A stretch of 64,000 bases of DNA from an uncultured Clostridia bacterium (GCA_934120045.1 CAKOTF010000003.1:1210-65209); one strand, 5' to 3'; positions 14,164 through 48,630 are shown, numbered from the stretch's first letter. Numbers and translations are program-made. Notes: a model not told the origin generated them from the letters alone.

Positions 14164-14360
14164 AATAAATTCCAGTCCTTTCTGTCTTAAAACAAAGGCA
14201 AAATAAAATTAGTTCTTATAATTAATAATAACATCAAAATTTGTCGAAATCAAAGGAAATAAATCACAAATAATTACAAACATTTTTTCGAAAATATATT
14301 GACTAATAAAAACAAAAAATATATAATTCAAAAAGAAAAATAAGATAGGAATGATGAAAA

Positions 14361-15722: not shown

Positions 15723-15772
15723 AAACAAAAGATTAGAAAAATAGGCTTTATAGTAGAGAGGAAGGTTTTTCA

Positions 15773-28873: not shown

Positions 28874-30931
28874 TTGAAAAATAAAGAAAAAACAAGAAAA
28901 AAGAAGAATCAAGATGGGCCTATAGTAATAGAATTAAATTTAAGTTTAACAGTGGGAATAATTGGAGCAATAATAGCAATAATAGTTGCAATAACAACAG
29001 TAAAAGTAATAACAACAATGATCCAAGCAAATGAAAACAAAAATGCAGCAAATGAAAGTGATATAAATCAATATGCAACATATGTAACAAGTACAACTAA
29101 AAATGAGAGTGGAAATATTGTAGAAGACAAAGATAGTAATGGAAATGTTATAAAAATTCCAGTTCCAAAAGGATATACTGCGTCACAAATAGATGGTGAA
29201 ACATCATTAAATAAAGGCTTTGTAATTTATGAAGGAGATGTAGACTGGAATACAATATTATTAAATACAAGTATGCAAAGTACAAATTCAAGTAATACAA
29301 AACCAGTAAATACTAATACAGAAAGCACACAAAGTAGTAAAACACAGCCTACAAATAGTGAGGAAACACAAAATACAGAAACACAAAGTACAACAACACA
29401 ATCTACAAACACAGAAACAAAATCAACAAATGATATGCCAAACGATGAAGAACAAACAGAAGAAAATACAATAATAGATAATGTTCAAAATACACAAAGT
29501 ACAATGAATACACAAACATCAAGTACAGATGCAACAAATAATAAAACAATAAGTACTGAAAAAACAAGCGAAACACTAAAAACAGAAAATGAAGAAAATA
29601 AAAATGAAAATCAAAATAATATAACAACATCAACAAAACAAGAAGAAAATCAAGAGAATCAAGCAACAAAAAGTACAGTAGAAGATAGCTCAACATCAAA
29701 TAAAGTAACAAATTCAACAGCAAATAATACAACAGAAAGCACTAACCCAAAACAAAATGAGAACAATGAAAATAATATACAAGAAAATCCAAAAGAAACA
29801 ATAGTAGAAAAAAGTACAGAAAATGGAATAGATGGAACGAATGCAGTAGATGTAGAAGATGAAACAGCAGATGATACAGGTACAACAGGTTCAACAGAAT
29901 TAACATTAGAAGAACAACAAAACAAAAATATATTTGATTTACAAAAGGAAAGAAACCAGTATGTATGGGTGCCAGTAAGTAACATATCAGAAATATATGG
30001 AGTAGATAGTAATAAAAAAATATGGGGAAAATTATACAACTTTTCAAGTTCAGGAAGATCAAATAGAAACTGGACAGAAACAAATGGAATAATGAGTATA
30101 ACAAATGCAACAAACTATAGAGAACCAGATGTGTTAAGTAATTTTTCAGGTAACTATGAGTATCAACATTACGACCAAGACGGTTATTCATATATGCACA
30201 GTTATGGATTAGGACAAACAAGATATGAAATGTTAGCACAGGAATTAGAACAAAACTATTTAGAAATAATGGAAAGCATAAAGAAATATGGAGGCTTTTA
30301 TATAGGAAGATATGAAACAGGAGGATTGAACGGAACAGCAGTAGTAAGAAAAATGGACACAAATATAGCTTCTCAAAATTGGTATACGATGTATAAAAAA
30401 TGTTTAACATTAAAAGGAAGTAATGATAATATAAAAACAATGATGATAACAGGAAGTTTGTGGGATGAGACATTAGAGTGGTTAGTGAAATCAGGAGCAA
30501 CGAATTCAGCAGGAACAACATTAACATATCAATTAGTAGGAAGCAATTCAACAACATTCGGAAATTATAATAATGCAACATTTAGTTATATAGCGAAAGA
30601 TGCAGAACAGCCAGTAGAGACAGAGACAAAAGAGACAAGTAAAGGTGTTTTAATACCAACAGGAAGTGCAGAATATACGAAGACGAATAACATATATGAT
30701 ATGGCAGGAAATGTGTGGGAGTGGACTACAGAGGCCTACTCTTCTTTCTCCAGGGTCTATCGTGGTGGCGTTTACAACAGCTACGGCTACGGCTATCCGA
30801 TGGCATACCGTAACGACGGCAGTCCGAGCAACTACAGCAGTGACTTACGGGTGCAGGAGCTTACTTTGCATAAAATAGGGTATCCTGAAACACTGTATCC
30901 TGATACAGCACCAAGAAGAGTAACAAATTGA
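28874..30931 (+). CDS. DGR variable (target) protein: N-terminal TM helix, long Thr/Asn/Gln/Ser-rich linker and a C-terminal FGE-sulfatase / C-type-lectin-fold domain containing the VR
   Basis: YIGRYETG...NIYDMAGNVWEWT...RGG FGE-sulfatase signature. The VR occupies the last about 65 codons. The start may be TTG at 28874 or ATG at 28913. Confidence 0.85.
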   Translation: MKNKEKTRKKKNQDGPIVIELNLSLTVGIIGAIIAIIVAITTVKVITTMIQANENKNAANESDINQYATYVTSTTKNESGNIVEDKDSNGNVIKIPVPKGYTASQIDGETSLNKGFVIYEGDVDWNTILLNTSMQSTNSSNTKPVNTNTESTQSSKTQPTNSEETQNTETQSTTTQSTNTETKSTNDMPNDEEQTEENTIIDNVQNTQSTMNTQTSSTDATNNKTISTEKTSETLKTENEENKNENQNNITTSTKQEENQENQATKSTVEDSSTSNKVTNSTANNTTESTNPKQNENNENNIQENPKETIVEKSTENGIDGTNAVDVEDETADDTGTTGSTELTLEEQQNKNIFDLQKERNQYVWVPVSNISEIYGVDSNKKIWGKLYNFSSSGRSNRNWTETNGIMSITNATNYREPDVLSNFSGNYEYQHYDQDGYSYMHSYGLGQTRYEMLAQELEQNYLEIMESIKKYGGFYIGRYETGGLNGTAVVRKMDTNIASQNWYTMYKKCLTLKGSNDNIKTMMITGSLWDETLEWLVKSGATNSAGTTLTYQLVGSNSTTFGNYNNATFSYIAKDAEQPVETETKETSKGVLIPTGSAEYTKTNNIYDMAGNVWEWTTEAYSSFSRVYRGGVYNSYGYGYPMAYRNDGSPSNYSSDLRVQELTLHKIGYPETLYPDTAPRRVTN
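30731..30866 (+). repeat. DGR variable region (VR)
   Basis: It aligns base-for-base with 32924..33059. About 35 differences all fall where the TR has A, and it ends in a conserved gggtgcaggagcttact (IMH-like). Confidence 0.88.
30889..30906 (+). other. short hairpin (ctgtatc-ct-gatacag) just downstream of the VR/IMH
   Basis: A perfect 7-bp inverted repeat 24 nt after the IMH-like sequence. Such hairpins are known to flank DGR VRs. Confidence 0.4.
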
Positions 30932-31123
30932 AAACATAAAAGGCGAGAAAATTTTTCACAAGTTCATATAAAAAGTAAATAAAAAGCCAAACAATTCTTT
31001 TTAGAATTGTTTGGCAAAATATAAAAATAAACTTATTGTCGAGAGTTATATTTTTATAAAGTCAAATAATGGAAATTGAATTGAATTAATGAGGTAGTAT
31101 AATATTAGGCAGAAAGGAAAAAG

Positions 31124-31522
31124 ATGAAATATATAGAAATACTACAAAAATTACAAAAAGAAGAACCAGACCACATAATTCTGATGAAAAATGGAATCTT
31201 TTTTATAGCAATAGGAAAAGATGCAATAGAATTAAATAAATTAATAGGACTTCAATTAACATGTATGAAAAAAGAATTATGCAAAGTTGGTTTTCAAACT
31301 AAGAGTTTGGAAAAATATATAGAAAAAATAAAAGAAACACAAAAATCATTTATAATATATACATATAATAAAGAAACCCAAAAAGAAGAAAAAATATATC
31401 AATATACAAATGAGCCAGTAACTGAAACAAAAACATGTAATGATTGTAACAAATGCAGTAGAAAAAAAGAAACAGAAGATGAAATAATAGAAAGAGTGAA
31501 AAAACTTGGAACAATATCTTAA
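31124..31522 (+). CDS. DGR accessory ORF with an N-terminal MutS domain-I (mismatch-binding)-like segment and a CxxCxxC motif
   Basis: KYIEILQKLQKEEPDHIILMKNGIFFIAIGKDAIELNKLIGLQLT resembles the MutS N-terminus ([45 protein letters not shown]). It lies between the target gene and avd. Confidence 0.5.
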   Translation: MKYIEILQKLQKEEPDHIILMKNGIFFIAIGKDAIELNKLIGLQLTCMKKELCKVGFQTKSLEKYIEKIKETQKSFIIYTYNKETQKEEKIYQYTNEPVTETKTCNDCNKCSRKKETEDEIIERVKKLGTIS

Positions 31523-31922
31523 TATACAAGATAAGAAAAAGCAAGAACAAAGAATAATAGAAAATAATTGCTTAACAATAATTCCAAAAACAGAAAGATA
31601 TATACAATATATGCTTGACTTAATATTAAAATTACCAAGAACAGAAAAATTTAATATAGGAACAGAATATAAGACGAGTATGTATCAAATGATGGAAGAA
31701 GTAATTTATGTTAGTAAATTACCACTTGAAGAAAGATATACACATGTTATAAAAATAGATGTTTTAGTTCAATTACAAAGAATATATTTAAGACTTATGA
31801 AAAATAATAAATGGATTGATGAAAGAAAATTTAAAATAGCAATAGAGCAATTAGGCGAAATAGGAAAAATAAATGGAGGTTTAATAAAGTTCTATGGCAA
31901 GAACTATAAGAAACCAATTTGA
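31506..31922 (+). CDS. avd: Avd (accessory variability determinant) homologue, a four-helix-bundle protein
   Basis: The ERYIQYMLDLILKLPRTEKF and LVQLQRIYLRLMKNNKWIDERKFKIAIEQLGEIGKINGGLI pattern parallels Bordetella bAvd (ERYERVISYLYPIAQSIPRKH ... LRFWLRFL...AEVGRILGSWI). It overlaps the RT start. Confidence 0.7.
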   Translation: MEQYLNIQDKKKQEQRIIENNCLTIIPKTERYIQYMLDLILKLPRTEKFNIGTEYKTSMYQMMEEVIYVSKLPLEERYTHVIKIDVLVQLQRIYLRLMKNNKWIDERKFKIAIEQLGEIGKINGGLIKFYGKNYKKPI

Positions 31923-32904
31923 TAAATATTTAACATATGATAACTTAATGAAAGCACATAAGTTATCAAGAAAAGGTAAAAACCTAAGAAGGGAAGTAGT
32001 ATTATTTGACTTAAAGCAAGAAGAATATATACAATGGATATATGAACAACTGAAAACAGAAAAATATCAGCATGGAGGATACAGAATATTTATAATAACA
32101 ATACCAAAAGAAAGAAAAGTACAAGCATCAAGATATATAGACAGAATAGTACACAGATGGGTAGTAGATAATTTTTTAAAACCATATTTTGAAACACAAT
32201 TCATAAATACAACATATGCTTGCATAAAAAATAGAGGAATGCATAGAGCAACGCTAGATGTTCAAAAAGCGATGAGACATTGCAAAAATAAATGGCAAGA
32301 TTATTATATATTGAAAATGGATGTAGCAAAATACTTTCAAAATATTGATAAAGATATTTTATTTAAAATTTTAAAAAGAAAGATTAAAGATAAAAAATTA
32401 TTAAACCTAATGTGGAAAATAATATATTCAGAAGAATCACCTAAAGGAATGCCAATAGGAAATTATACTTCACAAACACTAGCAAACATATATTTGAATG
32501 AAGTTGATCAATATGCGAAAAATGAATTAAAATGTAAATATTATTTTAGATATATGGATGATACAATAATTTTATTAAAAACAAAACAAGAAGCTATCAT
32601 AGTACTAGAAAAAATAAGAAAATTCTTAAAAGAAAAGTTAGAACTTGAACTGAATTCAAAAACTCAAATTTTCAAGTCAAAACAAGGAGTGAATTTTTGT
32701 GGATATAAAATTAATGAATATAGATTAAAAATTAGAACAAGAGGAAAAAAGAGCTTAAAAGATAAAGTAAAAAAATTAGAAACGCAAATACAGCAAGGAA
32801 AGTTGACAACAAAAGATGCTTATAAATTTCTAAGTGGACATTTAGGATACATACAAATAGCTAATGTAAAAACATTAGAAAATAAATTATTTTATGAAGA
32901 TTAA
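31894..32904 (+). CDS. DGR reverse transcriptase
   Basis: RT motifs are present, including PIGNYTSQTLANIYLNEVD (the DGR-specific [IVL]GxxxSQ) and FRYMDDTIIL (YxDD). The 336-aa size is typical of DGR RTs. Confidence 0.92.
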   Translation: MARTIRNQFDKYLTYDNLMKAHKLSRKGKNLRREVVLFDLKQEEYIQWIYEQLKTEKYQHGGYRIFIITIPKERKVQASRYIDRIVHRWVVDNFLKPYFETQFINTTYACIKNRGMHRATLDVQKAMRHCKNKWQDYYILKMDVAKYFQNIDKDILFKILKRKIKDKKLLNLMWKIIYSEESPKGMPIGNYTSQTLANIYLNEVDQYAKNELKCKYYFRYMDDTIILLKTKQEAIIVLEKIRKFLKEKLELELNSKTQIFKSKQGVNFCGYKINEYRLKIRTRGKKSLKDKVKKLETQIQQGKLTTKDAYKFLSGHLGYIQIANVKTLENKLFYED

Positions 32905-32923
32905 AATAATAGGGATAAATCGT

Positions 32924-33059
32924 AAGGCCAACTCTACTAACAACAGGGTCTATCGTGGTGGCAATTACAACAACAACGGCAACAACAATCCGATGGCAAA
33001 CCGTAACAACAACAATCCGAACAACAACAACAGTAACAAACGGGTGCAGGAGCTTACTC
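32924..33059 (+). repeat. DGR template repeat (TR), AAC-rich
   Basis: It is homologous to the VR, with adenines at every variable position, and lies immediately 3' of the RT gene. Confidence 0.88.
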
Positions 33060-33243: not shown

Positions 33244-33516
33244 ATGAATGAATGTTTTTTTATAGGAAAAATAATAAAAAACAATGGATTTAAATTTATT
33301 TTAAACAAAAAAAATAAATCTAAAATTGAATTTGAACTGAAATTAATAGATAATAACATATTAAAAATAGTTGCATATGATGAAAAAGCAGATTTTATAT
33401 TCAGAAATAATTTTGATATAAATGATATTGTTTTCATTAAGGGAAAAATAAGAACAGAACATGAAAAATTAATAATTGTTATTAATTATATAGAAAAAAT
33501 ATTTAGGAAAAAATAG
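33244..33516 (+). CDS. small hypothetical protein upstream of the pilus operon
   Basis: A 90-aa ORF with no recognisable motifs. Confidence 0.35.
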   Translation: MNECFFIGKIIKNNGFKFILNKKNKSKIEFELKLIDNNILKIVAYDEKADFIFRNNFDINDIVFIKGKIRTEHEKLIIVINYIEKIFRKK

Positions 33517-33536
33517 AAGGGAGGTATACCAAAGAA

Positions 33537-36500
33537 ATGAGCAAAAAGAAACTTACGAAAAAAAGTATAATATTAAGAACAATAATTGTACTAATAGCAG
33601 TAAGTATAGTAATTGGTATATATGTATTAAACAAAACACAAAAAATTGATAAATCTACAATGTCATCAGAATTACAAAGAACACAAGCATATGATGATGT
33701 AAAAGATGGAGATAATGCAATAAAAGATAATGCTGGAAATACAGTAAATGCAGTAAAATTTGATGCATTTTTCTTAAAAGATAAAAATGGAGACGGAGTA
33801 GCAGAATCAATAAGAGGAACATGTAATGAAATAGGAAGCCAAGCAAGTTTATACATGGAATTAAGTGTACTTGAACAAGGAAGACTAAAAGATGGAAAAA
33901 TAACAATTAATTCTAACAACTTTTATTTTAATACAACAATTGTAAAAGACAACGAAGTAAAAGACAACTATATTTCATCAAATACAAAAGAAATAAACTT
34001 TAATGAAATAGGTAATGGTACACAAAAATTATTAATAGGTTCAGTTCGTTCAGGTGATTATTCAAATTCTTATACAAAAACAAGTGCAATTGGAAATGAT
34101 ACAACAAAATATAGTAAAGAAAATTCTATAACATTTTCAGGAACATTTGTAGATAGTGAAGGGAATGAAACTACATTTTCTAAGGAAGTTCCGTTTACAG
34201 TTGACTGGTATGGTGAAACACATGTAGAAATTGATCCTAAAAGTCAAACTGTAGAAGTTACAGAAATGAATGATTTATCTACAGAAGATGGAGTAAAATT
34301 AAATTTTAATATTAGAACTGTAGAAAATAAAAACCAATTAAGTATATCAAGTTCAGAAATTAGTGGAACTATACCAGAATTAAATGGATATAAACCAACA
34401 TCAGTAAAAATATCTGGAACAAATGTAACATATACATATGATGCAGAAACAAGTGAATTTACAGCACAAAGAACAGCTGTGTTAAATGAAACTGGAGTTA
34501 TAACTTCAAATGGATATTCTTATTCATACTCTTCTGGTAATAGATATACAGAATTTAATTTTGAAATAACATATCCGGAAGAAGCATATACAGCTTTAGG
34601 TCAAGATGTAACAAGTTTTGAATTAGCAATTCCTGTACAAGCAGTAACAAGAGGATATAACAATCCAAATGAAGAAGACGGATTTATAAATCCATATGTA
34701 TCAAATACTGCAACAGGAATAGTAACAACAACATGGAGAAAACATGTAGGGCAATTATATGATTTTGCTATATATGTAGGAACATATATGGGTTCACCAT
34801 ATAATACATATGTTATTCAAAAGAAGAAACCATTAAACATTTATAATGGAATATCAGCAGAAGAAAAAAATGATACATATTTAGTACAATGGAGAACATA
34901 TACAGGCTCAAATGGTGCAACAGATGGAATAATAATGAATGAAACAACAGGAAAAACAGATTCATTTTTAAACACATCAGCAAAATATGAATCAATGGAT
35001 GAATTAACAACAAATGTTGGAATTTATTTTAGTGGTGCAAATAATGCATTAAATTCTGATGGATGGATTAAAGTATATGATGCAGATACAGATACACTAA
35101 TAAATACATTTACAGAAGAAGACTGGTCAGACTATACTTCTTCAAATCCATATAAATACGAAAATTCTATAAAACATATTAGAGTAGAAACAAGTAGTAC
35201 AAATGAACAATGTTATTTCTATGTAAATAATATCAAAGAATTAGATGATGAATATATAACAACAAAATATACAAAAGAAGAATTTGACAATTTATCATAC
35301 ATATACAGTTATTTAGATGGAAAAATGATAAAACCAAAAACAGATGAAAATGAAGAAACAACATATTGTTTTAAAGAAAGTGAAAGTAATAGAGCATTAT
35401 ATCAAGCACCAACATCTGTTGCAACAATATCAATAAAAGACAATACAATATCAACACATGTAACAGCAGAACACCAACAAATAACAATATCAACACAAAC
35501 ATCAGGATATAATGAACAAGGTTGGAAAAATAGTTCATTTTTAGTACAATTACCAAGTGAAATAATACTTGGAGAAATTAATACTGTAACAACAAATAAT
35601 TCAAATGTAAAAATAACAGCATATGATATATATGAAGAAAATGGAAATTATTACATAAGAATATTAACAGAAAATTCAAATGAGGAAACATTTAATATTA
35701 TAGTAGATTGTGATTTAACACCAGACCCAAGAATAGCAAAAACAACAAAATATGTAAAATTATGGGCTAAAAATGGAATAGCATCAGATTATTATTATTC
35801 TGGTGAAGATAAATATGATGTTGATGGAAATTCTAATACAACAGAAAAAGTAAATTATAGAGAAACATCATTTACATTTGATCCAGGTTCAAGTTTAAGT
35901 ACAACTCAAGTAGGAAGTAATTATGATGGTGAAGGTGGTATAACAATAGCACCAAGAGTTGCAAAAACAGATAAAGGACAAAGAACAGCAACAATTACAG
36001 TATCTGCAACAAATAATTACACATATGATATACAAGACTTGAAAATATTGGGTGTAATACCATTTGAAGGAAATCAATTTGTAATTAGTGGAAATGATTT
36101 AGGTTCAACATTTACAACATATATAAGTAAAGGTGGATTATCAACAATAACTAATGCAATAAAAGATAAAGTAAAAATATATTATTCAACAACAGAAAGA
36201 CCAAGCAAAGATGTAGAAGATTTAGCAAATGGTTGGAAATTAGCTAATGATGTTGAAGATTGGACAAAAATAAAAACATATTTAATTGTATTAGATAATT
36301 CATATAAATTATCATCAGGAGATAAAATTGAATTTGAATATGAAATCAATTTACCAGAAGGTGTTGATTATAATAAAATAGCATATTCAGAACATGCAAT
36401 ATATTTCGCATTAAATACTGATGAAGGATTATATTATACCTCAACAGGCTCTGCAAGATTAGGATTTATGATAGCAAAACAATATGATTTAGAAATTGTA

Positions 36501-39500
36501 AAATATCAAAAAGATACTGAAAAAACATTACAAGGAATAACATTTGCAATTACTGAAGATGGTGCAGAAACAAGTACAATTAAAACAACAGATGCAGATG
36601 GAAAACTTTTAGTAACAGGTTTATATGCAGAAAGATATTATACAATAAAAGAAATAAAAACAACAGATGATTATGTATTAAATCAAGAAGAAATAAGATT
36701 TTATACATACACAAAAATAAATGAAGATGGATCAGAGAGTTTATATTTAACATATCCAAATAAAGAAAATGAAAGTACACATTTGAATGTTATATATAAA
36801 ACAGTTAGAAATGACCAAGTAAATCCACCAAGTAATGGAAAAGATTATAAAATTCAAGTAAAAGTTAATAATGAAGTAAAAGCTAAATTAAAAATTAATA
36901 AAACAGATTTATCTGGAAATGTTTTAAAAAATGTTAAATTTATATTAACAGGAGAAGGAAAAAATGGCGAGATATTAACAACAGATAAAAATGGAGATAT
37001 TAATACATCAGGACTTCTTTTAGGTAAAGAATATACATTAGAAGAGATAAAAGCAACAGGTTATTATATTCCACAGACAAAAATTAAGTTTACAATATCA
37101 AATAATAATGGAAATTTTGAATTAAATTATACAGATAATAATACAACAAAAACAAAACAGATTATAACAACAGATGAAATACCAACAATAGAGTTAAATT
37201 TACAAAATGAAAAAATACCTACATATAGTTTACAATTAACCAAATATGCAAAAGGAGAAAAAGATACAAATGGAAATGATAAAAAATTAGCAAAAGCTCA
37301 ATATTTAATTAAAGGTGAAGGCATAAAAGATGAAGGTAAGATTTATACAACAGATGATAATGGAGTTCTTACAATAAATGATTTATATGAATATGTAGAA
37401 GGAAAATATATAACAGGTGAATATATATTAAAAGAAATTTATGCACCAGAAGGATATTCTCTAGACTCTACTGAATTGAAATTTAAAGCATATAGAGAAA
37501 ATGGGACATTGAAAATACAAATTCTTGAAGGTGATTCTGTAATTAGAAAGATTACAGTTGATGGTGTAGATAAAACAGACTTAAATATAAAAGATGCAGC
37601 TACTTCAAATGCAATAATTGAAATAGGTGTTGAAGATGGACAAATATTTTCAATTTATAAATATTATCAAGATGGTACAAGTTCAGCTAAAAAGCCAATA
37701 CCTGGAACAAGATTTAAAATTACAGATTTAAATGGAAATTATGTTACAGGTTCAGATGGGAAGACTGTTGGACAATGGTTTGATACAACTCCAGAACAAT
37801 TACCTGTACCAGATATAACATTATCTTCTACAGGAACATATCAATGGACACAAAGAGATGATGGAACTTGGGAAAGTACAGGAATTTATCATCAAGCAAG
37901 TAAAACAACAACATTGACATCAAATGAAATAGATTTAAAGCAAGCAGCAACATTGAAATTTGATTGGTCAGTATCATCTGAAAGTGTAAGTTATGATTAT
38001 GTTTATTATACAATTACAAATTTAGATACAAATAAAGTAGTAAATGGAACAGGAACATCAACCAAAATTGGTGGAACAAGTTATGGAACAGTTTATGAAA
38101 GTTTGAAATTTTTAAATGTATCATTAGATTTAACAGCAGGAAAATATAAAATCGAATTTACTTATAGGAAAGATGGATCAGGAGATAAAGGCTTAGACGC
38201 AGCTTTTATAAGAAATGTAAGATTTGAACAAAAAGAAGTTGAAAAAACAGGATATTATGCTGTAACAACAGATTCAAATGGACAAATAACAGCAAATTTA
38301 CCAGAAGGTTTATACAAGGCAATAGAAGTATATACAAATGATAGATATGTATTACCAGAAAAAGAAGCAGATAGAACATATTATTTTGGAATTGGTTCAT
38401 CACAAGCAGCAACATGGGATTGGGTAACAGGATTAACAGGAGAAGGTTGGAACTATGTAAATTCAGTTTCTGCACAAAAAGATGGAGGAGTAATAGCAGT
38501 TGGTTCATTCTCTAAATATTCAACAAATGTTGTAGCAAATGCTGTAGATGGAATTGATATAGATAATGATGGAACAGTTGATGAAATATCAGAAGGAAGC
38601 AATGATGGACTAATAATATCTTATGATACAGACGGAAAAGTAGTATGGTCAAAAACATTTGGAGGAGATAGTGATGATTCATTAAATAAAGTTATTCAAA
38701 CATCAGATGGAGGATATGTTGCAGTTGGATATGCTGAGAGTAATTCAATAAAATATGATGGAAAAATAATAAGTGAGCTTTCAAGAACATCAACAGATAA
38801 TTTATCACAAAAAGATGCAATATTATTAAAAATAAGTAAAGATGGAACTTATGAATGGGGCTTAAGAATTGGTGGAACAGGTGATGATGAAATACAATCA
38901 GTAATAGAAACAAGTGAAGGAAATTTCGCAATTACAGGAAACTATTATAGTTCACCATTTAACTTTTTTGATAGAGCAGGAACTGAAGTCAAAGGAACAA
39001 TGACAAATACTGGAGAAAGAGATGCATTTGTAGCATCATATTCTTCAACAGGAATATATCAGTGGAGTTCAGCAATAGGAGGAACAAATAATCAAGATGC
39101 GCCAGATTTAACAGAATATTCTACAGGAATTGCAGTAGCATCAAATTCAAGTACATCAGCACGTATCAGCTTATATTCATTAACAGGATCAGCTATAAAA
39201 AGTGCATTTTTAATAGGTAGTGGAACAAGCAAAATAACAAGTTTAGATACATATACAGATGGAACAATTATTGCAGGTGTAAATTATACAGGAACACAAT
39301 TTGATGCAGGAATATATAAAATAACAACAACAGGAAGTTCAACAAGAATTTATGAATTAACAGGAACTTATGATGAATATGTATCAGATGTACAAGTAAC
39401 ATCAGATGGAGGAATTTTATTTGGAGGCTGGTATTATTCAACAGATACAGCTGGAAGTGATGGAACAACATTTGAAGAAAAATCTGGTGAATATGCATGT

Positions 39501-41228
39501 GATGGATATGTAATAAAACTAAATTCAAAAAATGTTGTTGAATATTCAAGCAGATTATATGGAGACAATTATGATGGAGTAAATACAGTTACAGAAACAA
39601 GAAATGGAGCATTAGTATCTGGAGGATTTTATAATTCGTCAACATTTAGTGCAACAAATTGTAAAATAGAGAAAAGTGAAGATGATACAACACCAGTAGA
39701 ACAAATGCTTACAAGAGTTGGAAATTCAGAAGCATTTATAATAGCAGAAGGTGCATCAGGTGCAGAAGTACCAGAATCACAAAAATTAGAAGTTGAAAAC
39801 CAAATAAAATCATTCAAAATAACAACAGAGGTTAAAAAGAAAAATAATGTAGCTGGTGGAGATATAGATGGACAAACAGGTGTAACAATAGATGGAGTTA
39901 ACTATACAAAAGACGGAATAAGATATGTAGAAAAAGTAAAATATGGAGAAAATTCAAAAAATGCAATAAAAATAACACCAAATGCAAAATATGTAATAGA
40001 CAGTATAATAATAAATGGAAAAGAATATACAAACTTTACAACAGCAGAAGATGGAACAGTAACATTACCAATATTTGATAATGTATTAGAAGATAAGCAC
40101 ATTGTAGTACAATTTAGTAATACAATGGCAAATATAGAAGTAAATCATTATCTATGGACAAAAGCTGATGGGCCAACAACTACAAAAGTAGCAGAAACAC
40201 AAACAAGTACAGGAGAAGTTGGAACAACATATGAAACATCACCAAATACAGATATAGAATATGTAATTATAACAAATTCAGATTATTATGGTGAGAATTT
40301 ACCAGAAGGAGTAGTAGGAAGTGATTACTATATTCCAGCAAATTATAAAGGAACATATACAGAAGGAACAAAAGAAGTAATAAATTATTATTATAAAGAA
40401 AAAACATATAAATTAACAGTTCATCACTATTTAGATGGAACAACAGAATCAGTACCACTTAAAGATTCAACAACAGGTGAAAAAGTAGCAGATGAAATAA
40501 CAGAAGATTTAAAGAAAAATAGTGAATACACAACAACACAAGCAGGAGAAACAAAAATAGATTATTCAATTTATGAACTAGTTTCAATTCCAGAAAATGC
40601 TACTGGAACAATACAAGAAGATACAGAAGTAACATATTATTATAAAATAAAAACAGCAGATATTAGAATAACTAAAGTAGCAGAAGAAGATCATGAAAAA
40701 ACATTAGTAGATACGCAATTTGTATTATATCAATTTGTAGGAACAACTTCAAAAGATGAATTGATAGATACAAAAAATGTAAGCTCAGATTGGAAATTAA
40801 TTGGAACATATGCAACATCAAATTTAGGAATATTAAAACTAGAAAATTTACCAATAAATGAAGAATATAGATTAATAGAAATAAAAGCAACAGAAGGAAG
40901 AATAATTCCAGATGGACAATGGAAAATTCAATTTGTTACTGGAAATTATGACACAACAGATACATCAATAGTTACTATTAATGGGGTACCATTTAAAATA
41001 AATGCAATAGGAAATCCACCAGCTATGGTAAAAACAGATGATGGAAAACTATTACTTCCAAACAAGGAATATTATAAATTTCCAACAAGTGGAAGTATAG
41101 AACTAAAAATGTTTTATCAAACTGGAATGATTATTGTTACGATAGGGGTTGTTATAATGGCTCTTATAATAGTAAAAAGGTGTTATGTAAAAAACACTAA
41201 AAAAGTAAAGAAAGGGAGAAAACACTAA
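33537..41228 (+). CDS. giant (2563-aa) pilus tip/surface adhesin with an N-terminal signal-anchor, several Cna-B/SpaA-like isopeptide domains, an SBBP beta-propeller repeat region and a C-terminal membrane anchor
   Basis: Repeated domains of the form LEIVKYQKDTEKTLQGITFAITEDG...YYTIKEIKTTDDY (prealbumin-like fold). Repeats GGDSDDSLNKVIQTSDGGYVAVGY and GGTGDDEIQSVIETSEGNFAITGN are SBBP-type. The C-terminus has a hydrophobic helix and a KRK tail after FPTSG. Confidence 0.85.
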   Translation: MSKKKLTKKSIILRTIIVLIAVSIVIGIYVLNKTQKIDKSTMSSELQRTQAYDDVKDGDNAIKDNAGNTVNAVKFDAFFLKDKNGDGVAESIRGTCNEIGSQASLYMELSVLEQGRLKDGKITINSNNFYFNTTIVKDNEVKDNYISSNTKEINFNEIGNGTQKLLIGSVRSGDYSNSYTKTSAIGNDTTKYSKENSITFSGTFVDSEGNETTFSKEVPFTVDWYGETHVEIDPKSQTVEVTEMNDLSTEDGVKLNFNIRTVENKNQLSISSSEISGTIPELNGYKPTSVKISGTNVTYTYDAETSEFTAQRTAVLNETGVITSNGYSYSYSSGNRYTEFNFEITYPEEAYTALGQDVTSFELAIPVQAVTRGYNNPNEEDGFINPYVSNTATGIVTTTWRKHVGQLYDFAIYVGTYMGSPYNTYVIQKKKPLNIYNGISAEEKNDTYLVQWRTYTGSNGATDGIIMNETTGKTDSFLNTSAKYESMDELTTNVGIYFSGANNALNSDGWIKVYDADTDTLINTFTEEDWSDYTSSNPYKYENSIKHIRVETSSTNEQCYFYVNNIKELDDEYITTKYTKEEFDNLSYIYSYLDGKMIKPKTDENEETTYCFKESESNRALYQAPTSVATISIKDNTISTHVTAEHQQITISTQTSGYNEQGWKNSSFLVQLPSEIILGEINTVTTNNSNVKITAYDIYEENGNYYIRILTENSNEETFNIIVDCDLTPDPRIAKTTKYVKLWAKNGIASDYYYSGEDKYDVDGNSNTTEKVNYRETSFTFDPGSSLSTTQVGSNYDGEGGITIAPRVAKTDKGQRTATITVSATNNYTYDIQDLKILGVIPFEGNQFVISGNDLGSTFTTYISKGGLSTITNAIKDKVKIYYSTTERPSKDVEDLANGWKLANDVEDWTKIKTYLIVLDNSYKLSSGDKIEFEYEINLPEGVDYNKIAYSEHAIYFALNTDEGLYYTSTGSARLGFMIAKQYDLEIVKYQKDTEKTLQGITFAITEDGAETSTIKTTDADGKLLVTGLYAERYYTIKEIKTTDDYVLNQEEIRFYTYTKINEDGSESLYLTYPNKENESTHLNVIYKTVRNDQVNPPSNGKDYKIQVKVNNEVKAKLKINKTDLSGNVLKNVKFILTGEGKNGEILTTDKNGDINTSGLLLGKEYTLEEIKATGYYIPQTKIKFTISNNNGNFELNYTDNNTTKTKQIITTDEIPTIELNLQNEKIPTYSLQLTKYAKGEKDTNGNDKKLAKAQYLIKGEGIKDEGKIYTTDDNGVLTINDLYEYVEGKYITGEYILKEIYAPEGYSLDSTELKFKAYRENGTLKIQILEGDSVIRKITVDGVDKTDLNIKDAATSNAIIEIGVEDGQIFSIYKYYQDGTSSAKKPIPGTRFKITDLNGNYVTGSDGKTVGQWFDTTPEQLPVPDITLSSTGTYQWTQRDDGTWESTGIYHQASKTTTLTSNEIDLKQAATLKFDWSVSSESVSYDYVYYTITNLDTNKVVNGTGTSTKIGGTSYGTVYESLKFLNVSLDLTAGKYKIEFTYRKDGSGDKGLDAAFIRNVRFEQKEVEKTGYYAVTTDSNGQITANLPEGLYKAIEVYTNDRYVLPEKEADRTYYFGIGSSQAATWDWVTGLTGEGWNYVNSVSAQKDGGVIAVGSFSKYSTNVVANAVDGIDIDNDGTVDEISEGSNDGLIISYDTDGKVVWSKTFGGDSDDSLNKVIQTSDGGYVAVGYAESNSIKYDGKIISELSRTSTDNLSQKDAILLKISKDGTYEWGLRIGGTGDDEIQSVIETSEGNFAITGNYYSSPFNFFDRAGTEVKGTMTNTGERDAFVASYSSTGIYQWSSAIGGTNNQDAPDLTEYSTGIAVASNSSTSARISLYSLTGSAIKSAFLIGSGTSKITSLDTYTDGTIIAGVNYTGTQFDAGIYKITTTGSSTRIYELTGTYDEYVSDVQVTSDGGILFGGWYYSTDTAGSDGTTFEEKSGEYACDGYVIKLNSKNVVEYSSRLYGDNYDGVNTVTETRNGALVSGGFYNSSTFSATNCKIEKSEDDTTPVEQMLTRVGNSEAFIIAEGASGAEVPESQKLEVENQIKSFKITTEVKKKNNVAGGDIDGQTGVTIDGVNYTKDGIRYVEKVKYGENSKNAIKITPNAKYVIDSIIINGKEYTNFTTAEDGTVTLPIFDNVLEDKHIVVQFSNTMANIEVNHYLWTKADGPTTTKVAETQTSTGEVGTTYETSPNTDIEYVIITNSDYYGENLPEGVVGSDYYIPANYKGTYTEGTKEVINYYYKEKTYKLTVHHYLDGTTESVPLKDSTTGEKVADEITEDLKKNSEYTTTQAGETKIDYSIYELVSIPENATGTIQEDTEVTYYYKIKTADIRITKVAEEDHEKTLVDTQFVLYQFVGTTSKDELIDTKNVSSDWKLIGTYATSNLGILKLENLPINEEYRLIEIKATEGRIIPDGQWKIQFVTGNYDTTDTSIVTINGVPFKINAIGNPPAMVKTDDGKLLLPNKEYYKFPTSGSIELKMFYQTGMIIVTIGVVIMALIIVKRCYVKNTKKVKKGRKH

Positions 41229-42793
41229 TGAAAGAAAAAACATTATTTAAAGCAATAGTTGTTGCTATTGCAATTGTCCTAATTGTTATGGGACTAAATT
41301 TACAAGCGTTTGCATCAATAACTACAACAACAAATACAAAAAATATTACTGTTTCAGGAATTGAAGCAGGAGTAAAAGTATCTGCATATCAATTAACAAC
41401 AGTTAATTATGATTATACAGCAGACCAACCACAAGCTGTTCCATATACTTGGAATAGCAGTGTGAAAACATGGGTAGATGCTAATTATTCAACATATTCA
41501 AACCCAGAAAACTTTTATAAAAATGTAACAAGTAATTCTGATGAAGCAAAAGAATTTTATAGTGCATTATCAGGAGCTATAAAAGCTGGAACTGTTACAT
41601 TAACAGCAAAAACAGAAACTGCAACAGGAACAGCATCATATCCTGTTACAGATGATAAATTAACAGGAACAGTTACATTCACAGGATGTGAAATGGGAAC
41701 ATATTTAATTTTAATTGAAAATGGTTACAAAGTATATACACCATCTGTAATTAATTTAACACCAGAATTTGATAGAACATCAAATGAATGGAAATTACCA
41801 GATTCAATGATAGTAACAGTAAAAGCAACTAATCCCCAAGTTACAAAAACTGTTACAGATACAGCAAAAAACAAAGATAATTACAGTACAAAAGATGTAA
41901 TACCATTTACAATCGTTGCAGATATACCAACATATTTAACAGGAAGTTTATCAAAAACATATAAAGTTGGAGATACATTAAGTAATGGTTTAAAATTAGA
42001 TGATTCAACAATTAAAGTATATGGACAAAAAGGTTCAGGAAATCCTGTTGAATTAACAAAAACAACAGATTATACAAGTTCAGTAACAGGAACAACATCA
42101 TTTGAAATTAATTTTAAATATGATCAAATAAAAAATTATGACAAAGTAAGAGTTACATATAGTGCATCTCTTGCAAAAGAAACAACAACAAATATTGGTG
42201 GAGCTGGAAATACAAACACAGCAAAATTAACATATAGCAATAATCCATATGTTGCAAATTCTACACAAGAACAAGAAACAAGCAACAAAGTATTTACATA
42301 TGGTGCAGAAATTACAAAAACAGATAAAACATCTGGTGAAGCATTAACAGGTGCTGAATTTGAATTAACAAAAGATTCAAACAAATTATATTTTGTAAAA
42401 ACAGCTGATGGAGTATATTATCAAGCAAATAGCTCTGATGTAGGAGCAACAACAACTTTAGGAGTTGATAATAAGGGAAAATTAAACATATTTGGTTTAG
42501 CAGAAGGAACATATAGTTTAACAGAAACAAAAGCACCTTCAGGATATAATAAATCAGCAGAAACAAAAGAAATAAAAATAACAGATGCTGACTTAAATGG
42601 AGCATTAGATGATGAAACAGGTTCAACAGGAATTTATAAATTAACATTCCCTAACTCACAAGGATTCCAATTACCAGTAACAGGTGGAGCTGGAACAGTA
42701 GCATTTGTAGCAGGAGGAGTAGTATTTGTTGGATTAGGTATTGCATTATTTGTAATTGCTATGAAAAAAGGAAAAAAAGTAAATGAAAAATAA
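41228..42793 (+). CDS. major pilin subunit, LPXTG-anchored (LPVTGG, TM, KKGKK)
   Basis: A signal peptide and a C-terminal sorting signal LPVTGGAGTVAFVAGGVVFVGLGIALFVIAMKKGKK. A Cna-B-like domain is present (ETKAPSGYN). The start overlaps the adhesin stop (taATGa). Confidence 0.8.
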   Translation: MKEKTLFKAIVVAIAIVLIVMGLNLQAFASITTTTNTKNITVSGIEAGVKVSAYQLTTVNYDYTADQPQAVPYTWNSSVKTWVDANYSTYSNPENFYKNVTSNSDEAKEFYSALSGAIKAGTVTLTAKTETATGTASYPVTDDKLTGTVTFTGCEMGTYLILIENGYKVYTPSVINLTPEFDRTSNEWKLPDSMIVTVKATNPQVTKTVTDTAKNKDNYSTKDVIPFTIVADIPTYLTGSLSKTYKVGDTLSNGLKLDDSTIKVYGQKGSGNPVELTKTTDYTSSVTGTTSFEINFKYDQIKNYDKVRVTYSASLAKETTTNIGGAGNTNTAKLTYSNNPYVANSTQEQETSNKVFTYGAEITKTDKTSGEALTGAEFELTKDSNKLYFVKTADGVYYQANSSDVGATTTLGVDNKGKLNIFGLAEGTYSLTETKAPSGYNKSAETKEIKITDADLNGALDDETGSTGIYKLTFPNSQGFQLPVTGGAGTVAFVAGGVVFVGLGIALFVIAMKKGKKVNEK

Positions 42794-43676
42794 TAGTGAA
42801 AAACTACTATTAATAATATCAATAATTTTTATAATACTAGGGGTAGGAATTTTCCTATACCCTAGTATTAGTAATTATTTGGCAGAAAAAAATCATATTG
42901 ATATAATTAGAAATTATGATAATCTAATTGTAAAAATAAATGAAGAAAAAATAAATGAGGAAAAAGAAAAAGCTAGAATATATAATGAAAACTTGTCTGG
43001 AGATCCAGTACATGACCCATTTGTTATAGGAAGCGGATATGCTTTACCTGAAAATTATAAAGAAGTACTTAATGTTAGTGATGATGGTGTAATGGGATAT
43101 GTTGAAATTCCCAAAATTTCAGTATATTTACCAATATATCATGGAACAAGTGATGAGGTACTTGAAAAAGGTGTAGGACATATTCAAAATACTTCTGTAC
43201 CTATTGGTGGAAATTCTACACATAGTATATTAACAGGACATACAGGTTTGCCAAATGCAGAATTATTTACAAGACTTGATGAACTTGGAATAGATGATAT
43301 TTTCTATATTCATGTTTTAGGTGATGTATTAACATATAAAGTTTTTGAAACAAAAGTTATATTACCAGATAAAATTGATGAATTACGAATATTAAATGGA
43401 AAAGATTATGTAACATTAGTAACATGTACACCATATGGAGTAAATTCACATAGACTATTAGTAAAAGCAGAAAGAGTAGAATATGAGGAATATTTTGCAA
43501 ATAAGGACAATACTAATAATGAAGGAACAAACACTAAAACAGAAAATGTAAGTAAACATTATTATTTAACAGGAGCTCAGATTGGTATTGTAATATTGGC
43601 TTTAATTTTGATGATTACTGTAATTATTATTGTATCAATGAGAAACAAAAAGAATAAATATAAAATAAAAAAATAG
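42783..43676 (+). CDS. class C (pilus-specific) sortase
   Basis: N- and C-terminal TM helices, a DPF lid motif, catalytic LTGHTG His and a TLVTCTPY Cys motif. Confidence 0.85.
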   Translation: MKNNSEKLLLIISIIFIILGVGIFLYPSISNYLAEKNHIDIIRNYDNLIVKINEEKINEEKEKARIYNENLSGDPVHDPFVIGSGYALPENYKEVLNVSDDGVMGYVEIPKISVYLPIYHGTSDEVLEKGVGHIQNTSVPIGGNSTHSILTGHTGLPNAELFTRLDELGIDDIFYIHVLGDVLTYKVFETKVILPDKIDELRILNGKDYVTLVTCTPYGVNSHRLLVKAERVEYEEYFANKDNTNNEGTNTKTENVSKHYYLTGAQIGIVILALILMITVIIIVSMRNKKNKYKIKK

Positions 43677-43701
43677 CATATACAAAATTTTAAGATAGGG
43701 T

Positions 43702-44397
43702 GTGATAAATTTGAAAGAAAAAATATTAATTATAATTTCAATTATATTGATTTTAGTTGGTATATCAATGTTTTGCTTTCCACATGTAAGTAATTTTGTA
43801 TATGAAAAGGGTGTTGAAAGAGACAAAGAGGAATTTGTAGAGAAAATATCAAAAGATGAAAATGAAGAAGTTCTAGATAGGTTATATAAAGATTTACAAG
43901 AAAAAAATAAAATACTTTATAAAGATATGCAAAATAATTTAGTTGATCCATTTTCATATGAGCAACCAGCAATAGATTTGAATGAATATGGAATTGATAA
44001 TAATGTTATAGGATATATAAATATTCCTAAAATGAATATTGAACTTCCGATATTATTAGGTGCAAATTCTTCTAATATGTTAAAAGGTGCAGTTCATCTT
44101 ACAGAAACATCTTATCCAATTGGTGGAATTAATACAAATAGTGTTATTGCAGGACATAGAGGATATGGAAGAGCAACATTATTTAGACATATTGAAAAGC
44201 TTGAAATTGGAGATGAAATTTATATTAAAAATTTTAAAGAAGAGCTTACATATGTTGTTTATGATATTAAAATTATTGAACCAGATGATGTTAGTGAACT
44301 TAAGGTTCAAGATGGGGAAGATATTATTACATTAATAACATGTCATCCATATCGTGTAAATTCTCATAGATATATTGTAAAAGCAAAGAGAAAATAA
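43702..44397 (+). CDS. class C sortase, second copy
   Basis: DPF lid, IAGHRG and ITLITCHPY. The GTG/TTG start is ambiguous (43702 or 43711). Confidence 0.85.
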   Translation: MINLKEKILIIISIILILVGISMFCFPHVSNFVYEKGVERDKEEFVEKISKDENEEVLDRLYKDLQEKNKILYKDMQNNLVDPFSYEQPAIDLNEYGIDNNVIGYINIPKMNIELPILLGANSSNMLKGAVHLTETSYPIGGINTNSVIAGHRGYGRATLFRHIEKLEIGDEIYIKNFKEELTYVVYDIKIIEPDDVSELKVQDGEDIITLITCHPYRVNSHRYIVKAKRK

Positions 44398-44492
44398 AAT
44401 AGCATTACGGAAATATTCCATAAGTGGAAAATTTCGTAATGCTTTAATTTATAATGTTTTAAATTTTATATAATTTAGTAGGTTTGAGTAAA

Positions 44493-45647
44493 TTATATAT
44501 TATAATTATAATTTATAGTAACACTAGGTGATGGATATGCAATATCATCTATCATTATTTTAGACCAGTCTTCTTGAGAACCTTTATAATTCAATATTGA
44601 AAGTTCATTAAAAAATCCAGTTCCAATTTTTTCAATACTTTTTGGCATTAAGACTATTAAGTTCCAATTATTAGATTCAAAAGCATTATTTGCAATAACT
44701 TTTGTTCCATCTTTTATTTCAATTCTTTTTCTTTGGCTTAAACTACCTTTATAAGTGTAGTATATATTTCCTATATAAACATCTTTATTATTTGTTTGAT
44801 TTTTATACCATTTTGTTCCGGTAAATGAATTTCCATAAATTGATGTTACACTTTCTGGAACATCAATATTTTCCAAATTAGAACAATTTTTAAAAGTATT
44901 TGATCCTATTTCTGAAACAGTATTTGGAATTATGATTTCAGTTAATCCTTTGCAATATATAAAAGCATTGTCTGAAATTTTCTCAATACCAGAATTTAAA
45001 GTTATTTTACTTAAATTTGTAAAACATCCAAATGAAGTAGTAGGAATATTTTTTACTGTTGATGGAATATTAACACCTTTTAATTTTGGAGTTCCTGCCA
45101 TAGAACTTGTTTTTGTTTCGCCATATTTACTTAATTCATTTATTTGGCTTGATATTACTAAGTCTCCATCAAGATTATAACTTATCTTTGTAAGTTTTTT
45201 TTCATCTACAGTTATATCACCATTATCTATAAGTTCTTTCCAAGATTTTATTAATTGAGTTGTTCCTGCTTGATACAATCCAGGTTTTAATTCATCATCA
45301 TCTTCTAAATTAAAATTTATGTTATGACTTCCAATTGTTATAGTGCCATCATTTTGAACTTGTTCTATTTCATTATCATATAAAAGTCCTTTTTCTTTTA
45401 AAGTTTCTAATAGTTCTTCAAGTGTTTTAGCAGTTGAAAATCCCATTTCATTGTCTGTTCTAACATTACTTTTCCAGAGGTTACAATATTCTTCAACAGA
45501 GCCACCTCTGCTTTCTTCTTTTGATTTTTTTGCTTGCCTTATAATACTATTTTCTCCTGTAAAGAGATTAATGCTTACTCCTGCAAGTATTAACATTACT
45601 ATTATTGTTACGGCTAATGCTATTAAAGTTACACCTTTATTTTTCAT
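44493..45647 (-). CDS. protein with a type IV prepilin-like N-terminus (KG/VTLIALAV...) and a BspA-type leucine-rich-repeat C-terminal domain
   Basis: MKNKGVTLIALAVTIIVMLILAGVS resembles a class III signal peptide but has Ala, not Glu, at mature position 5. LRR_5-like repeats are present (KITLNSGIEKISDNAFIYCKGLTEIIIPNTVSEIGSNTFKNCSNLENIDVPESV). Confidence 0.6.
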   Translation of the reverse strand: MKNKGVTLIALAVTIIVMLILAGVSINLFTGENSIIRQAKKSKEESRGGSVEEYCNLWKSNVRTDNEMGFSTAKTLEELLETLKEKGLLYDNEIEQVQNDGTITIGSHNINFNLEDDDELKPGLYQAGTTQLIKSWKELIDNGDITVDEKKLTKISYNLDGDLVISSQINELSKYGETKTSSMAGTPKLKGVNIPSTVKNIPTTSFGCFTNLSKITLNSGIEKISDNAFIYCKGLTEIIIPNTVSEIGSNTFKNCSNLENIDVPESVTSIYGNSFTGTKWYKNQTNNKDVYIGNIYYTYKGSLSQRKRIEIKDGTKVIANNAFESNNWNLIVLMPKSIEKIGTGFFNELSILNYKGSQEDWSKIMIDDIAYPSPSVTINYNYNI

Positions 45648-47956: not shown

Positions 47957-48003
47957 GCAGTTGGAAAAATTTTCTAACTGCTTTATAAAAAGGAGTATAT
48001 TTA

Positions 48004-48630
48004 ATGGATAAAGGAGAAAGAATTTGTATTTTTTTTCTACTATTATTGATATTAATTTTTTCTATTATTTTAGTATATAGAATAAAGTCAGGACCACAAT
48101 ATAATGAAAAATTATATAATGAAGTATATGAAGAATATGGACAATTATTTGAAAATAATAAAGAAGAACCAGAAGGAGATAATATCTCTAATTCAAGAAA
48201 AAAAGATAATGCAATTTATATAAGAGTAGATGCACAAGGAAATGAATATAGAGTTATTGGAAAAATAGTTATTCCTAAAATTAGTATACAATATCCCATT
48301 ATTTATGAAACATCTGAAAGTTATTTAAAAATAGCCCCAACCAAGTTATTTGGACCAGATATTAATGAAGTTGGAAACTTATGTATAGTAGGACATAATT
48401 ATAGAAATAAACAGTTTTTTAGTAGGTTATCAGAATTGAATATTGGAGATAAGGTGTATTTAACTTCAAATAATGGAAATGATATGACTTATTTGGTTTA
48501 TGATAAGTACGAAATTGAAGAAAATGACATGGAATGTACTAGCCAAGATACAAAAGGAAATATAGAATTGACATTAATAACATGTACTTCCAAAAAGAAG
48601 AAGAGGTTAGTTGTAAAATGTAAAGCATGA
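48004..48630 (+). CDS. sortase (small, class B/other) adjacent to the MPKTG substrate
   Basis: An N-terminal TM helix, LCIVGHNYRN (His) and ELTLITCTS (Cys). Confidence 0.75.
   Translation: MDKGERICIFFLLLLILIFSIILVYRIKSGPQYNEKLYNEVYEEYGQLFENNKEEPEGDNISNSRKKDNAIYIRVDAQGNEYRVIGKIVIPKISIQYPIIYETSESYLKIAPTKLFGPDINEVGNLCIVGHNYRNKQFFSRLSELNIGDKVYLTSNNGNDMTYLVYDKYEIEENDMECTSQDTKGNIELTLITCTSKKKKRLVVKCKA

Follow-up and report, generated by a model that had tools for sequence, protein, structure and literature searches.

A probable sortase-assembled pilus operon with a giant CylK-like propeller adhesin in uncultured gut Clostridia

Background

We report a sortase-pilus operon in a 64,000-nucleotide stretch of DNA from an uncultured Clostridia bacterium (GCA_934120045.1, CAKOTF010000003.1:1210-65209), here called the window, in which positions are counted from the first letter. 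The locus is a genuine operon of a known kind of system, and we consider it probable that its four genes, which encode a 2563-residue adhesin, a pilin and a pair of class C sortases (SrtC1 and SrtC2), form a working two-pilin sortase-assembled pilus operon of uncultured low-GC gut Clostridia. What is new here is a giant candidate for the tip subunit with a CylK-like beta-propeller, a clade-wide sorting signal of the serine type that is tied to the pilus genes, and a conserved genetic pairing with the target gene of a diversity-generating retroelement (DGR). Much is understood about sortase pili in pathogens, but there is hardly any description of them from the uncultured Clostridia that are dominant in many guts.

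The locus had been singled out in an earlier reading of the sequence alone (the original prediction), which proposed a sortase-dependent pilus operon with an unusual tip adhesin. In the present analysis, the gene content, the pilin and sortase families, the fold of the propeller, the conservation and positional homology of the sorting signal and the synteny of related loci were computed directly. A homologue search with the adhesin gave 486 matches, the best 120 of which (all E = 0) are the listed homologues referred to below. The gene neighbourhoods of 16 relatives, designated by locus numbers such as L001, were read and searched with the window proteins.

Organisation of the operon

The genes for the adhesin, a putative pilus tip subunit (33537-41228), the major (shaft) pilin (41228-42793; 521 residues), SrtC1 (42783-43676; 297 residues) and SrtC2 (43702-44397; 231 residues from an uncertain GTG start) are all intact open reading frames (ORFs) on the plus strand and span 33537-44397. 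One base is common to the adhesin stop codon and the pilin start codon (TAATG), and just 5' of the pilin start the last adhesin codons contain a GGGAG ribosome-binding site. Between the pilin gene and that of SrtC1 the overlap is 11 nucleotides. Beyond SrtC2, RNA folding found a terminator-like hairpin followed by a U-rich tract (44401-44443, plus strand; -18.4 kcal/mol, z = -5.2, equally stable in 0 of 200 shuffles), at which the operon would end and beyond which lies a convergent gene. We read the locus as a pilus operon because of this gene order, with its 1- and 11-nucleotide overlaps and its terminal hairpin. The window is AT-rich (about 27% GC), and a promoter scan gave fewer matches in it than in shuffled sequence.

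By profile and motif, the pilin and both sortases are ordinary members of known families. The pilin scores 113.5 bits against NF033902 (SpaH/EbpB major pilin; cut-off 95) and matches GramPos_pilinBB, SpaA and Gram_pos_anchor in Pfam. Its N-terminus reads as a cleavable signal peptide (AFA/S) and its C-terminus as LPVTGG, a hydrophobic stretch and then KKGKK, the LPVTG being at residue 482 (42671-42685). The pilin-motif lysine, Lys199, lies in VTVKATNP (41822-41824) and the E-box, YSLTETKAPSGY, at residue 429 (42512-42547), all of these motif positions being on the plus strand. Among solved structures, chains 5xcc, 6ixy and 9vo4 come nearest (E about 1e-20); we take them to be CppA of C. perfringens. 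Lys199 aligns with the lysine of INPK in solved chains such as 9vo4. Against the class C model NF033745 (cut-off 160), SrtC1 scores 277 bits and SrtC2 218 bits. Both carry a DPF lid and the GH and HR motifs, with TLVTC in SrtC1 and TLITC in SrtC2, and a C-terminal membrane helix is limited to SrtC1 of the two.

These results uphold much of the original prediction: the pilus cluster by the gene order and the profile matches, the LPVTG pilin and the two DPF-lid class C sortases by scores and motifs, and the translational coupling of adhesin and pilin by the one-base overlap and the internal ribosome-binding site. Disruption of the operon had been named as grounds for rejecting it, and the genes were found intact in the window. 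The suggestion that two sortases beside one pilin hint at specialisation fared unevenly, as the arrangement is common in known pilus islands but the pair is kept in seven of the eight loci that carry the same type of adhesin signal (see below).

Architecture of the adhesin

The adhesin begins with a basic and hydrophobic export signal read from the sequence (residues 1 to about 38; 33537-33650). Residues 40-985 (33654-36491) are predicted by AlphaFold2, from a 16-sequence alignment, to be a nearly all-beta chain of beta-sandwich (Ig-like) domains (pLDDT 87.6, pTM 0.70). Foldseek ranked the Ig-like domains of PrgB at the top for this array (E 1e-17), with integrin legs, the MG domains of alpha-2-macroglobulin and the C-terminus of AgI/II also among the best matches. 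The array had neither a Pfam nor a PDB sequence match, and no vWA or thioester domain was found in the N-terminal ~950 residues by Pfam, PDB profile or fold search.

Three tandem SpaA/CnaB-type stalk domains follow (residues 985-1345; 36489-37571; three stretches of PF17802, E 2e-32) and then a fourth SpaA domain (37623-38411), recognised by a partial PF17802 match to its C-terminal half and split by an insertion of about 150 residues (residues ~1413-1565; 37773-38231). Segment BLAST found the insertion in some homologues and not in others. The propeller occupies residues 1629-2071 (38421-39749), and beyond it come a module of ~115 residues and two MucBP domains (together residues 2086-2382; 39792-40682; two stretches of PF06458, E 2e-6) and a fifth SpaA domain (40683-41036; PF17802, E 6e-9) that adjoins the sorting signal. 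All of these features lie on the plus strand. The five PF17802 stretches (whole-protein E 5e-36) agree with the several Cna-B/SpaA-like domains originally proposed and, with the two MucBP domains, account for all Pfam matches on the adhesin. A motif-level alignment lined up the first-strand Lys and the E-box Glu in all five SpaA domains, and gave no confident placement for the last-strand Asn/Asp of the isopeptide triads. A PDB sequence search with the whole adhesin, the 150-residue insertion and the module preceding the MucBP domains returned nothing usable, and no PDB relative of the insertion was found.

The central block is, on its predicted structure, a CylK-like seven-bladed beta-propeller. 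In the AlphaFold2 model of residues 1615-2085, built from a homologue alignment (pLDDT 87.5, pTM 0.89), the strand list contains 28 core strands that form seven four-strand blades, plus two hairpins, and the ring is closed by its own N-terminal strand. The top Foldseek match was the propeller of CylK (E 3e-16, TM 0.69), and a profile of the family also reached CylK by sequence (E 2e-11), the repeat common to both being D-a-x-l-x-K-y-d-x-x-G-x-x-x-W-x-k-x-f-G. The original prediction had called the block an SBBP beta-propeller from its GGxxDD...DGGY repeats. The repeats were confirmed and the propeller fold is supported by the model and the CylK match, whereas membership of SBBP is not. PF06739, the Pfam check set beforehand, was run and gave no match at E <= 10 on the whole adhesin, on seven pieces of it, on a 490-residue piece, on a three-blade fragment or on the family consensus; it gave none in 21 family members, and it is absent from the precomputed Pfam domains of the best 120 of the 486 homologues. 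The SBBP label was therefore dropped and the term propeller retained. The sole Pfam propeller signal was a weak match to Beta-prop_EMC1_N in 12 of 21 relatives (best E 5e-6).

Of the modules of the adhesin, the propeller is the likeliest candidate for ligand binding. In CylK, Ca2+ sites are found at the blade junctions of the propeller (PMC8916777), and the acidic GGxxDD junctions of the adhesin may be equivalent to them.

A conserved serine-type sorting signal

The adhesin ends in a variant of the cell-wall sorting signal, delimited by homologue alignment (41079-41225, plus strand). It consists of FPTSG (residues 2515-2519; 41079-41093, plus strand), a spacer in which Y-Q-x-G is conserved, a hydrophobic helix that begins about 11 residues past the Gly, and a basic tail. 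The pattern [F/L/I/M]-P-x-S-G is present in 45 of the 120 listed homologues, which amount to 36 distinct signals. Five residues do not vary at all across these, namely P, S, G, N(-6) and G(+22); Y(+12) and G(+15) are nearly invariant, and the neighbouring positions vary. In 18 related C-termini, [L/F/I/M]-P-x-T-G stands at the same position with equal spacing to the hydrophobic helix, and the G-x-G and aromatic-x-x-G features are common to the serine-type and threonine-type signals. The conserved residues inside the adhesin signal are unlike those of the signal of the pilin.

Because P, S and G are conserved and fall in the same register as LPxTG, we read FPTSG as a sorting signal. The comparison of homologues indicates a conserved Thr-to-Ser variant, not a plain anchor, and the variant signal of the original prediction is in this respect confirmed by conservation over the 36 signals and by positional homology. 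A serine in this place is unusual yet precedented, as PrpA of E. faecium is recorded as carrying a natural LPKSG signal (PMC4682149). In the literature, LPXSG is otherwise mainly a target of engineered sortases.

Co-variation of the signal with pilus genes

In the window and in L001, L002, L007, L008, L011 and L016, a serine-type adhesin is accompanied by a CppA-like pilin ending in LP[VT]TGG and by orthologues of both SrtC1 and SrtC2. L017, with MPTSG, has the same type of pilin and a SrtC1-type sortase only. The order adhesin, pilin, SrtC1-type sortase is therefore kept in all eight serine-type loci with downstream sequence, and a SrtC2 orthologue in seven of them. Among the threonine-type loci, L003, L010 and L015 have no pilin, L014 has a sortase upstream on a contig that ends just past the adhesin, and in L012 and L013 the pilin is of another kind (D1-type) and at most one sortase lies nearby. 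Signal type and the presence of a pilin appear from these neighbourhoods to co-vary. In a rough neighbour-joining tree, drawn without support values, most serine-type proteins fall in one clade, and a threonine subclade that lacks the pilin branches in their midst.

The original prediction had also supposed that FPTSG may be read by the second sortase. This is weakened, and we do not retain it, as the serine-type signal and pilin of L017 are served by a single SrtC1-type sortase. The adhesin family appears, on the loci compared, to be combined with differing pilus kits by lineage. As a further observation on L013, its D1-type pilin, which lies 3' of the adhesin, is followed by a 599-residue protein (14018-15817) with a thioester domain (TED) and SpaA that ends in LPVTG.

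The adhesin family

The adhesin belongs to a large, unnamed protein family of gut Clostridia metagenome-assembled genomes (MAGs). The best 120 of the 486 homologues are 1548-4466 residues long, all come from gut metagenomes or MAGs, and where a name is given it is 'hypothetical' or 'DUF11 domain-containing'. In essentially all 120, segment-by-segment BLAST found the order N-terminal array, SpaA, propeller, MucBP to be kept. The nearest genomes are MAGs of uncultured Clostridia, some from the guts of Hadza and Nepali people and some from the mouse gut. In public data, near-identical proteins of full length are grouped into clusters with 267 and 568 members.

Compared with its orthologue in L001 (85% identical), the adhesin gene appears to be under purifying selection. 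The ratio dN/dS is 0.31 overall, 0.23 in the propeller and 0.12 in the MucBP part (residues 2086-2382), which is the most constrained part of the gene. To judge by these ratios, the MucBP part and the propeller are the likeliest regions to be of importance for binding. Proteins P0009 and P0017 were compared with the window adhesin as mosaic alleles: P0009 is 98-99% identical to it over the N-terminal 1370 residues and 64-79% identical from the propeller to the C-terminus. Against L001, dS ranges by region from 0.14 (propeller) to 0.39 (N-terminal array). As identity and synonymous divergence vary by region, the mosaic alleles suggest recombination between adhesin alleles.

The upstream retroelement and its lectin-fold target

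A complete DGR, recognised by Pfam, NCBIfam and a pair of template and variable repeats (TR and VR), lies on the plus strand directly upstream of the pilus operon (28874-33058). The earlier reading had overlooked both the DGR and its conserved lectin-target gene. The target (28874-30931; Pfam FGE-sulfatase) is a membrane-anchored protein of 685 residues, in which a membrane helix at the N-terminus is joined by a low-complexity linker to an FGE-sulfatase (C-type-lectin) domain at the C-terminus. It is followed on the same strand by MSL (31124-31522; Pfam MutS_I), a described DGR accessory gene (PMC5758913), by Avd (31506-31922; Pfam bAvd, NF033474) and by the reverse transcriptase (RT; 31894-32904; Pfam RVT_1). 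The TR (32925-33058) matches the VR in the target gene (30732-30865) over 134 nucleotides at 81% identity, with 25 of the 25 mismatches at TR adenines. The adhesin was considered as a DGR target and rejected, as the sole TR match in the 64-kb window (80 of 80 non-adenine positions) is in the 685-residue upstream gene; since the window holds no second VR, the adhesin is not diversified.

Between the TR and the adhesin lies a small ORF of 90 residues (33244-33516, plus strand) which the original prediction had counted in the operon. Its stop is 20 nucleotides from the adhesin start and it may be co-transcribed with the adhesin. Its company is, however, that of the DGR, so its membership of the operon does not hold: it lies 3' of the TR in all four DGR-bearing loci and is absent from the DGR-less ones, and a metagenome scan with it yielded 38 loci (L019-L056), 34 of which have a DGR RT beside it. 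At least eight of those 34 are without an adhesin in the flank. This co-occurrence rules it out as a pilus gene or chaperone. The small ORF gave a weak OB-fold match (PF01336, E 0.003) and is a recurrent companion of MSL/Avd-type DGRs, just past the TR or past MSL. The DGR accessory genes named in PMC5758913 are Avd, HRDC, MSL and CH1; the small ORF is not among them and may be a further DGR accessory protein.

A homologue of the lectin target stands directly 5' of the adhesin in 12 assembled loci (the window, L001, L003, L007-L014 and L016). The pairing holds with or without an intervening DGR and with or without a downstream pilin, while the outer flanking genes vary and the N-terminal identity of the adhesins across the 12 loci is 43-80%. 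The pairing of lectin and adhesin is better conserved than that of adhesin and pilin. Just 5' of the lectin-target gene, the window (27524-28510, minus strand) and L016 (2581-3669) both have a YhgA-like putative transposase (Pfam Transposase_31), and L007 has a PDDEXK_2 gene 3' of its sortases; such neighbours may hint at a mobile surface module.

Proposed assembly and alternative explanations

The mechanism that we propose is modelled on Bacillus cereus BcpA/BcpB. There, the tip pilin BcpB (IPNTG) is cut by the pilus sortase only and the LPVTG of BcpA by both sortases (PMC3297441). The sorting signal of a tip pilin has also been found to suffice for tip placement (PMC11389406). By analogy, both precursors would be exported and then retained in the membrane through their C-terminal signals. 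We infer that a class C sortase then cuts the FPTSG of the adhesin between Ser and Gly and links that serine, Ser2518, to Lys199 of the first pilin, which would confine the adhesin to the distal tip because its serine is joined to the pilin lysine. The pilins would next be polymerised through LPVTG and Lys199, possibly with some division of labour between the two sortases, and the finished fibre would be handed to the cell wall via the canonical signal of the pilin. The adhesin would be a long stalk, built from beta-sandwich, SpaA and MucBP modules, that bears the CylK-like propeller. Within the clade, the serine form of the signal may be the ticket for entry into the pilus, and threonine-type relatives without a pilin are presumably anchored directly to the wall. 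The co-variation of the serine signal with the pilin fits the logic of B. cereus, as a divergent tip signal is there cut only by the pilus sortase, and it agrees with the sufficiency of such a signal for tip placement.

Several points weigh against this proposal. The adhesin signal peptide has no obvious AXA cleavage site on sequence reading, neither Pfam Gram_pos_anchor (PF00746) nor TIGR01167 matches the adhesin C-terminus where both match the pilin, and the operon is without a housekeeping sortase or basal pilin. At 2563 residues, the adhesin is to our knowledge far larger than any characterised tip pilin, and we know of no characterised pilus tip that carries a propeller. The same architecture occurs in relatives without pilus genes (L009, L010, L015), so the family is not intrinsically a pilin family, and the co-occurrence in eight of eight loci reflects few independent events because most of the serine-type proteins belong to a single clade. 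Any ligand proposed for the propeller, possibly a glycan, is a guess.

The most serious competitor is a stand-alone fibrillar adhesin, attached to the wall by a neighbouring or unlinked sortase and merely sharing an operon with a single-subunit pilus. We rate this as clearly less probable than a two-pilin pilus, though a real contender. The size of the adhesin is atypical for a tip pilin, about 120 relatives share the domain architecture, and many of them have a canonical LPxTG-type signal, with no adjoining pilin in L003, L010 and L015 or no sortase genes nearby in L009. The natural LPKSG signal of E. faecium PrpA is assumed to give ordinary wall anchoring (PMC4682149). On the other side, the adhesin stop overlaps the pilin start, the serine-type signal comes with a pilin and a class C sortase in eight of eight loci, loss of the pilin coincides with the threonine form, and the adhesin signal differs from that of the pilin as the tip signals of B. 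cereus do (PMC3297441).

If FPTSG were unprocessed, the C-terminal helix would be a simple anchor and the protein would be tethered to the membrane. The pentapeptide does lack the canonical Thr, the two anchor profiles do not match and the helix begins about 11 residues past the Gly, but a plain anchor would not need P, S and G to be invariant over 36 distinct signals among variable neighbours, nor the exact register with [LFIM]PxTG in relatives and the common G-x-G and aromatic-x-x-G features; we consider it improbable. Least probable of all is that the cluster is a decaying or silent remnant whose features are inherited without function. It is known from MAGs only, and SrtC1 and MSL are split in L007 and the adhesin in L003; set against this are the four intact genes of the window, the near-identical full-length proteins in clusters of 267 and 568 sequences, and dN/dS values of 0.31 for the whole gene and 0.12-0.23 for the MucBP part and the propeller. 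The working two-pilin operon thus stays our preferred explanation. Its furthest extension is a joint conjecture that [F/L/I/M]PxSG is an orthogonal signal for class C sortases only, that a Thr/Ser switch sets pilus tip versus wall for the ~280-kDa adhesin, and that the pilus makes up one functional module with the DGR-diversified lectin protein; taken as a whole, this is rather doubtful.

Other surface genes in the window

Downstream of the operon, the plus strand at 46721-48630 encodes a second pair of substrate and sortase. The substrate is a secreted protein of 411 residues whose C-terminus consists of MPKTG, a hydrophobic stretch and a basic tail; the sortase after it is divergent, has 208 residues and finds its best match in class C at 68 bits, under every class cut-off. 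This pair is absent from the otherwise syntenic L001, and relatives of the sortase lie 3 kb downstream of the pilin-less adhesins in L003 and L010. A BspA-type leucine-rich-repeat protein is encoded on the minus strand at 44493-45647, with an N-terminus, KGVTLIALAVTIIVMLILAGV, that resembles the leader of a type IV prepilin or pseudopilin. N-termini like it begin other genes in L001 and L017 and appear to begin minus-strand DGR target genes in L035, L036, L042 and L043. At 63634-63999 (minus strand), an ORF that reaches the end of the window (64000) encodes the C-terminal part of a surface protein with LPKTG, a hydrophobic stretch and a basic tail.

Significance

If the proposed assembly is correct, a large, unnamed family of giant adhesins, 2400-4460 residues in length, would place a CylK-like propeller at the pilus tip. 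Should its specificity be confirmed, the serine-type signal and the class C sortases that go with it would account for the encoding of tip identity in this locus, and would provide a natural LPXSG-type sortase and substrate pair, a specificity that is currently obtained by engineering. The pairing with the lectin would hint that a fixed long-range adhesin is combined with a short-range binder that evolves rapidly. Should the reading prove wrong, the locus is merely another pilus island with a large neighbouring surface protein.

Comparison with known systems

The BcpA-BcpB-SrtD system of B. cereus is alike in having two structural genes, a pilus-specific sortase, an LPVTG major pilin with a pilin-motif lysine and a minor tip pilin, BcpB, whose divergent signal (IPNTG) confines it to the tip (PMC3297441). 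In the present locus, the divergence falls on the cleavage-site residue (Ser for Thr) instead of positions 1 and 3, a pair of class C sortases is encoded, and the tip candidate is of a different domain make-up. It is also, we presume, several times the size of BcpB. The Cpp pilus of C. perfringens presumably supplies the nearest solved pilin chains (CppA), with which the pilin-motif Lys and the E-box align. Polymerisation of its major pilin by an adjacent class C sortase is cited in PMC8088525. The pilin sequences have diverged, and a propeller adhesin is not described for that pilus in the literature consulted.

The tip adhesins RrgA, GBS104, SpaC, EbpA, CnaA and Cpa likewise join a CnaB/SpaA-type stalk and a binding module to a C-terminal sorting signal, which in their case a pilus sortase reads. 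They use vWA, thioester or collagen-binding CnaA modules in proteins of roughly 700-1600 residues, whereas the present adhesin has no vWA or TED match and carries a beta-propeller, MucBP domains and a 950-residue beta-sandwich array instead. CylK, a cyanobacterial Friedel-Crafts alkylating enzyme (PDB 7fh6, 7ron), has the same seven blades and acidic blade junctions. It is a soluble enzyme, however, and its N-terminal Ca-binding domain, which is part of the active site, is absent from the adhesin. The likeness does not imply an enzymatic role for the adhesin propeller.

In the Bacteroides type V pili, also of gut bacteria, a DGR is tied genetically to pilus or adhesin genes; it diversifies the pilus adhesin itself, in a Gram-negative setting (bioRxiv 10.1101/2024.11.15.621889). 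Here, the adhesin is without a VR, and diversification falls on a separate protein, membrane-anchored and of lectin fold, that is encoded beside a sortase pilus. E. faecium PrpA shares with the adhesin a natural sortase-type signal with Ser for Thr that is assumed to be functional (PMC4682149). PrpA is a single protein with no pilus context, whereas in the present family the serine form is clade-wide and stands beside a pilin that keeps the threonine.

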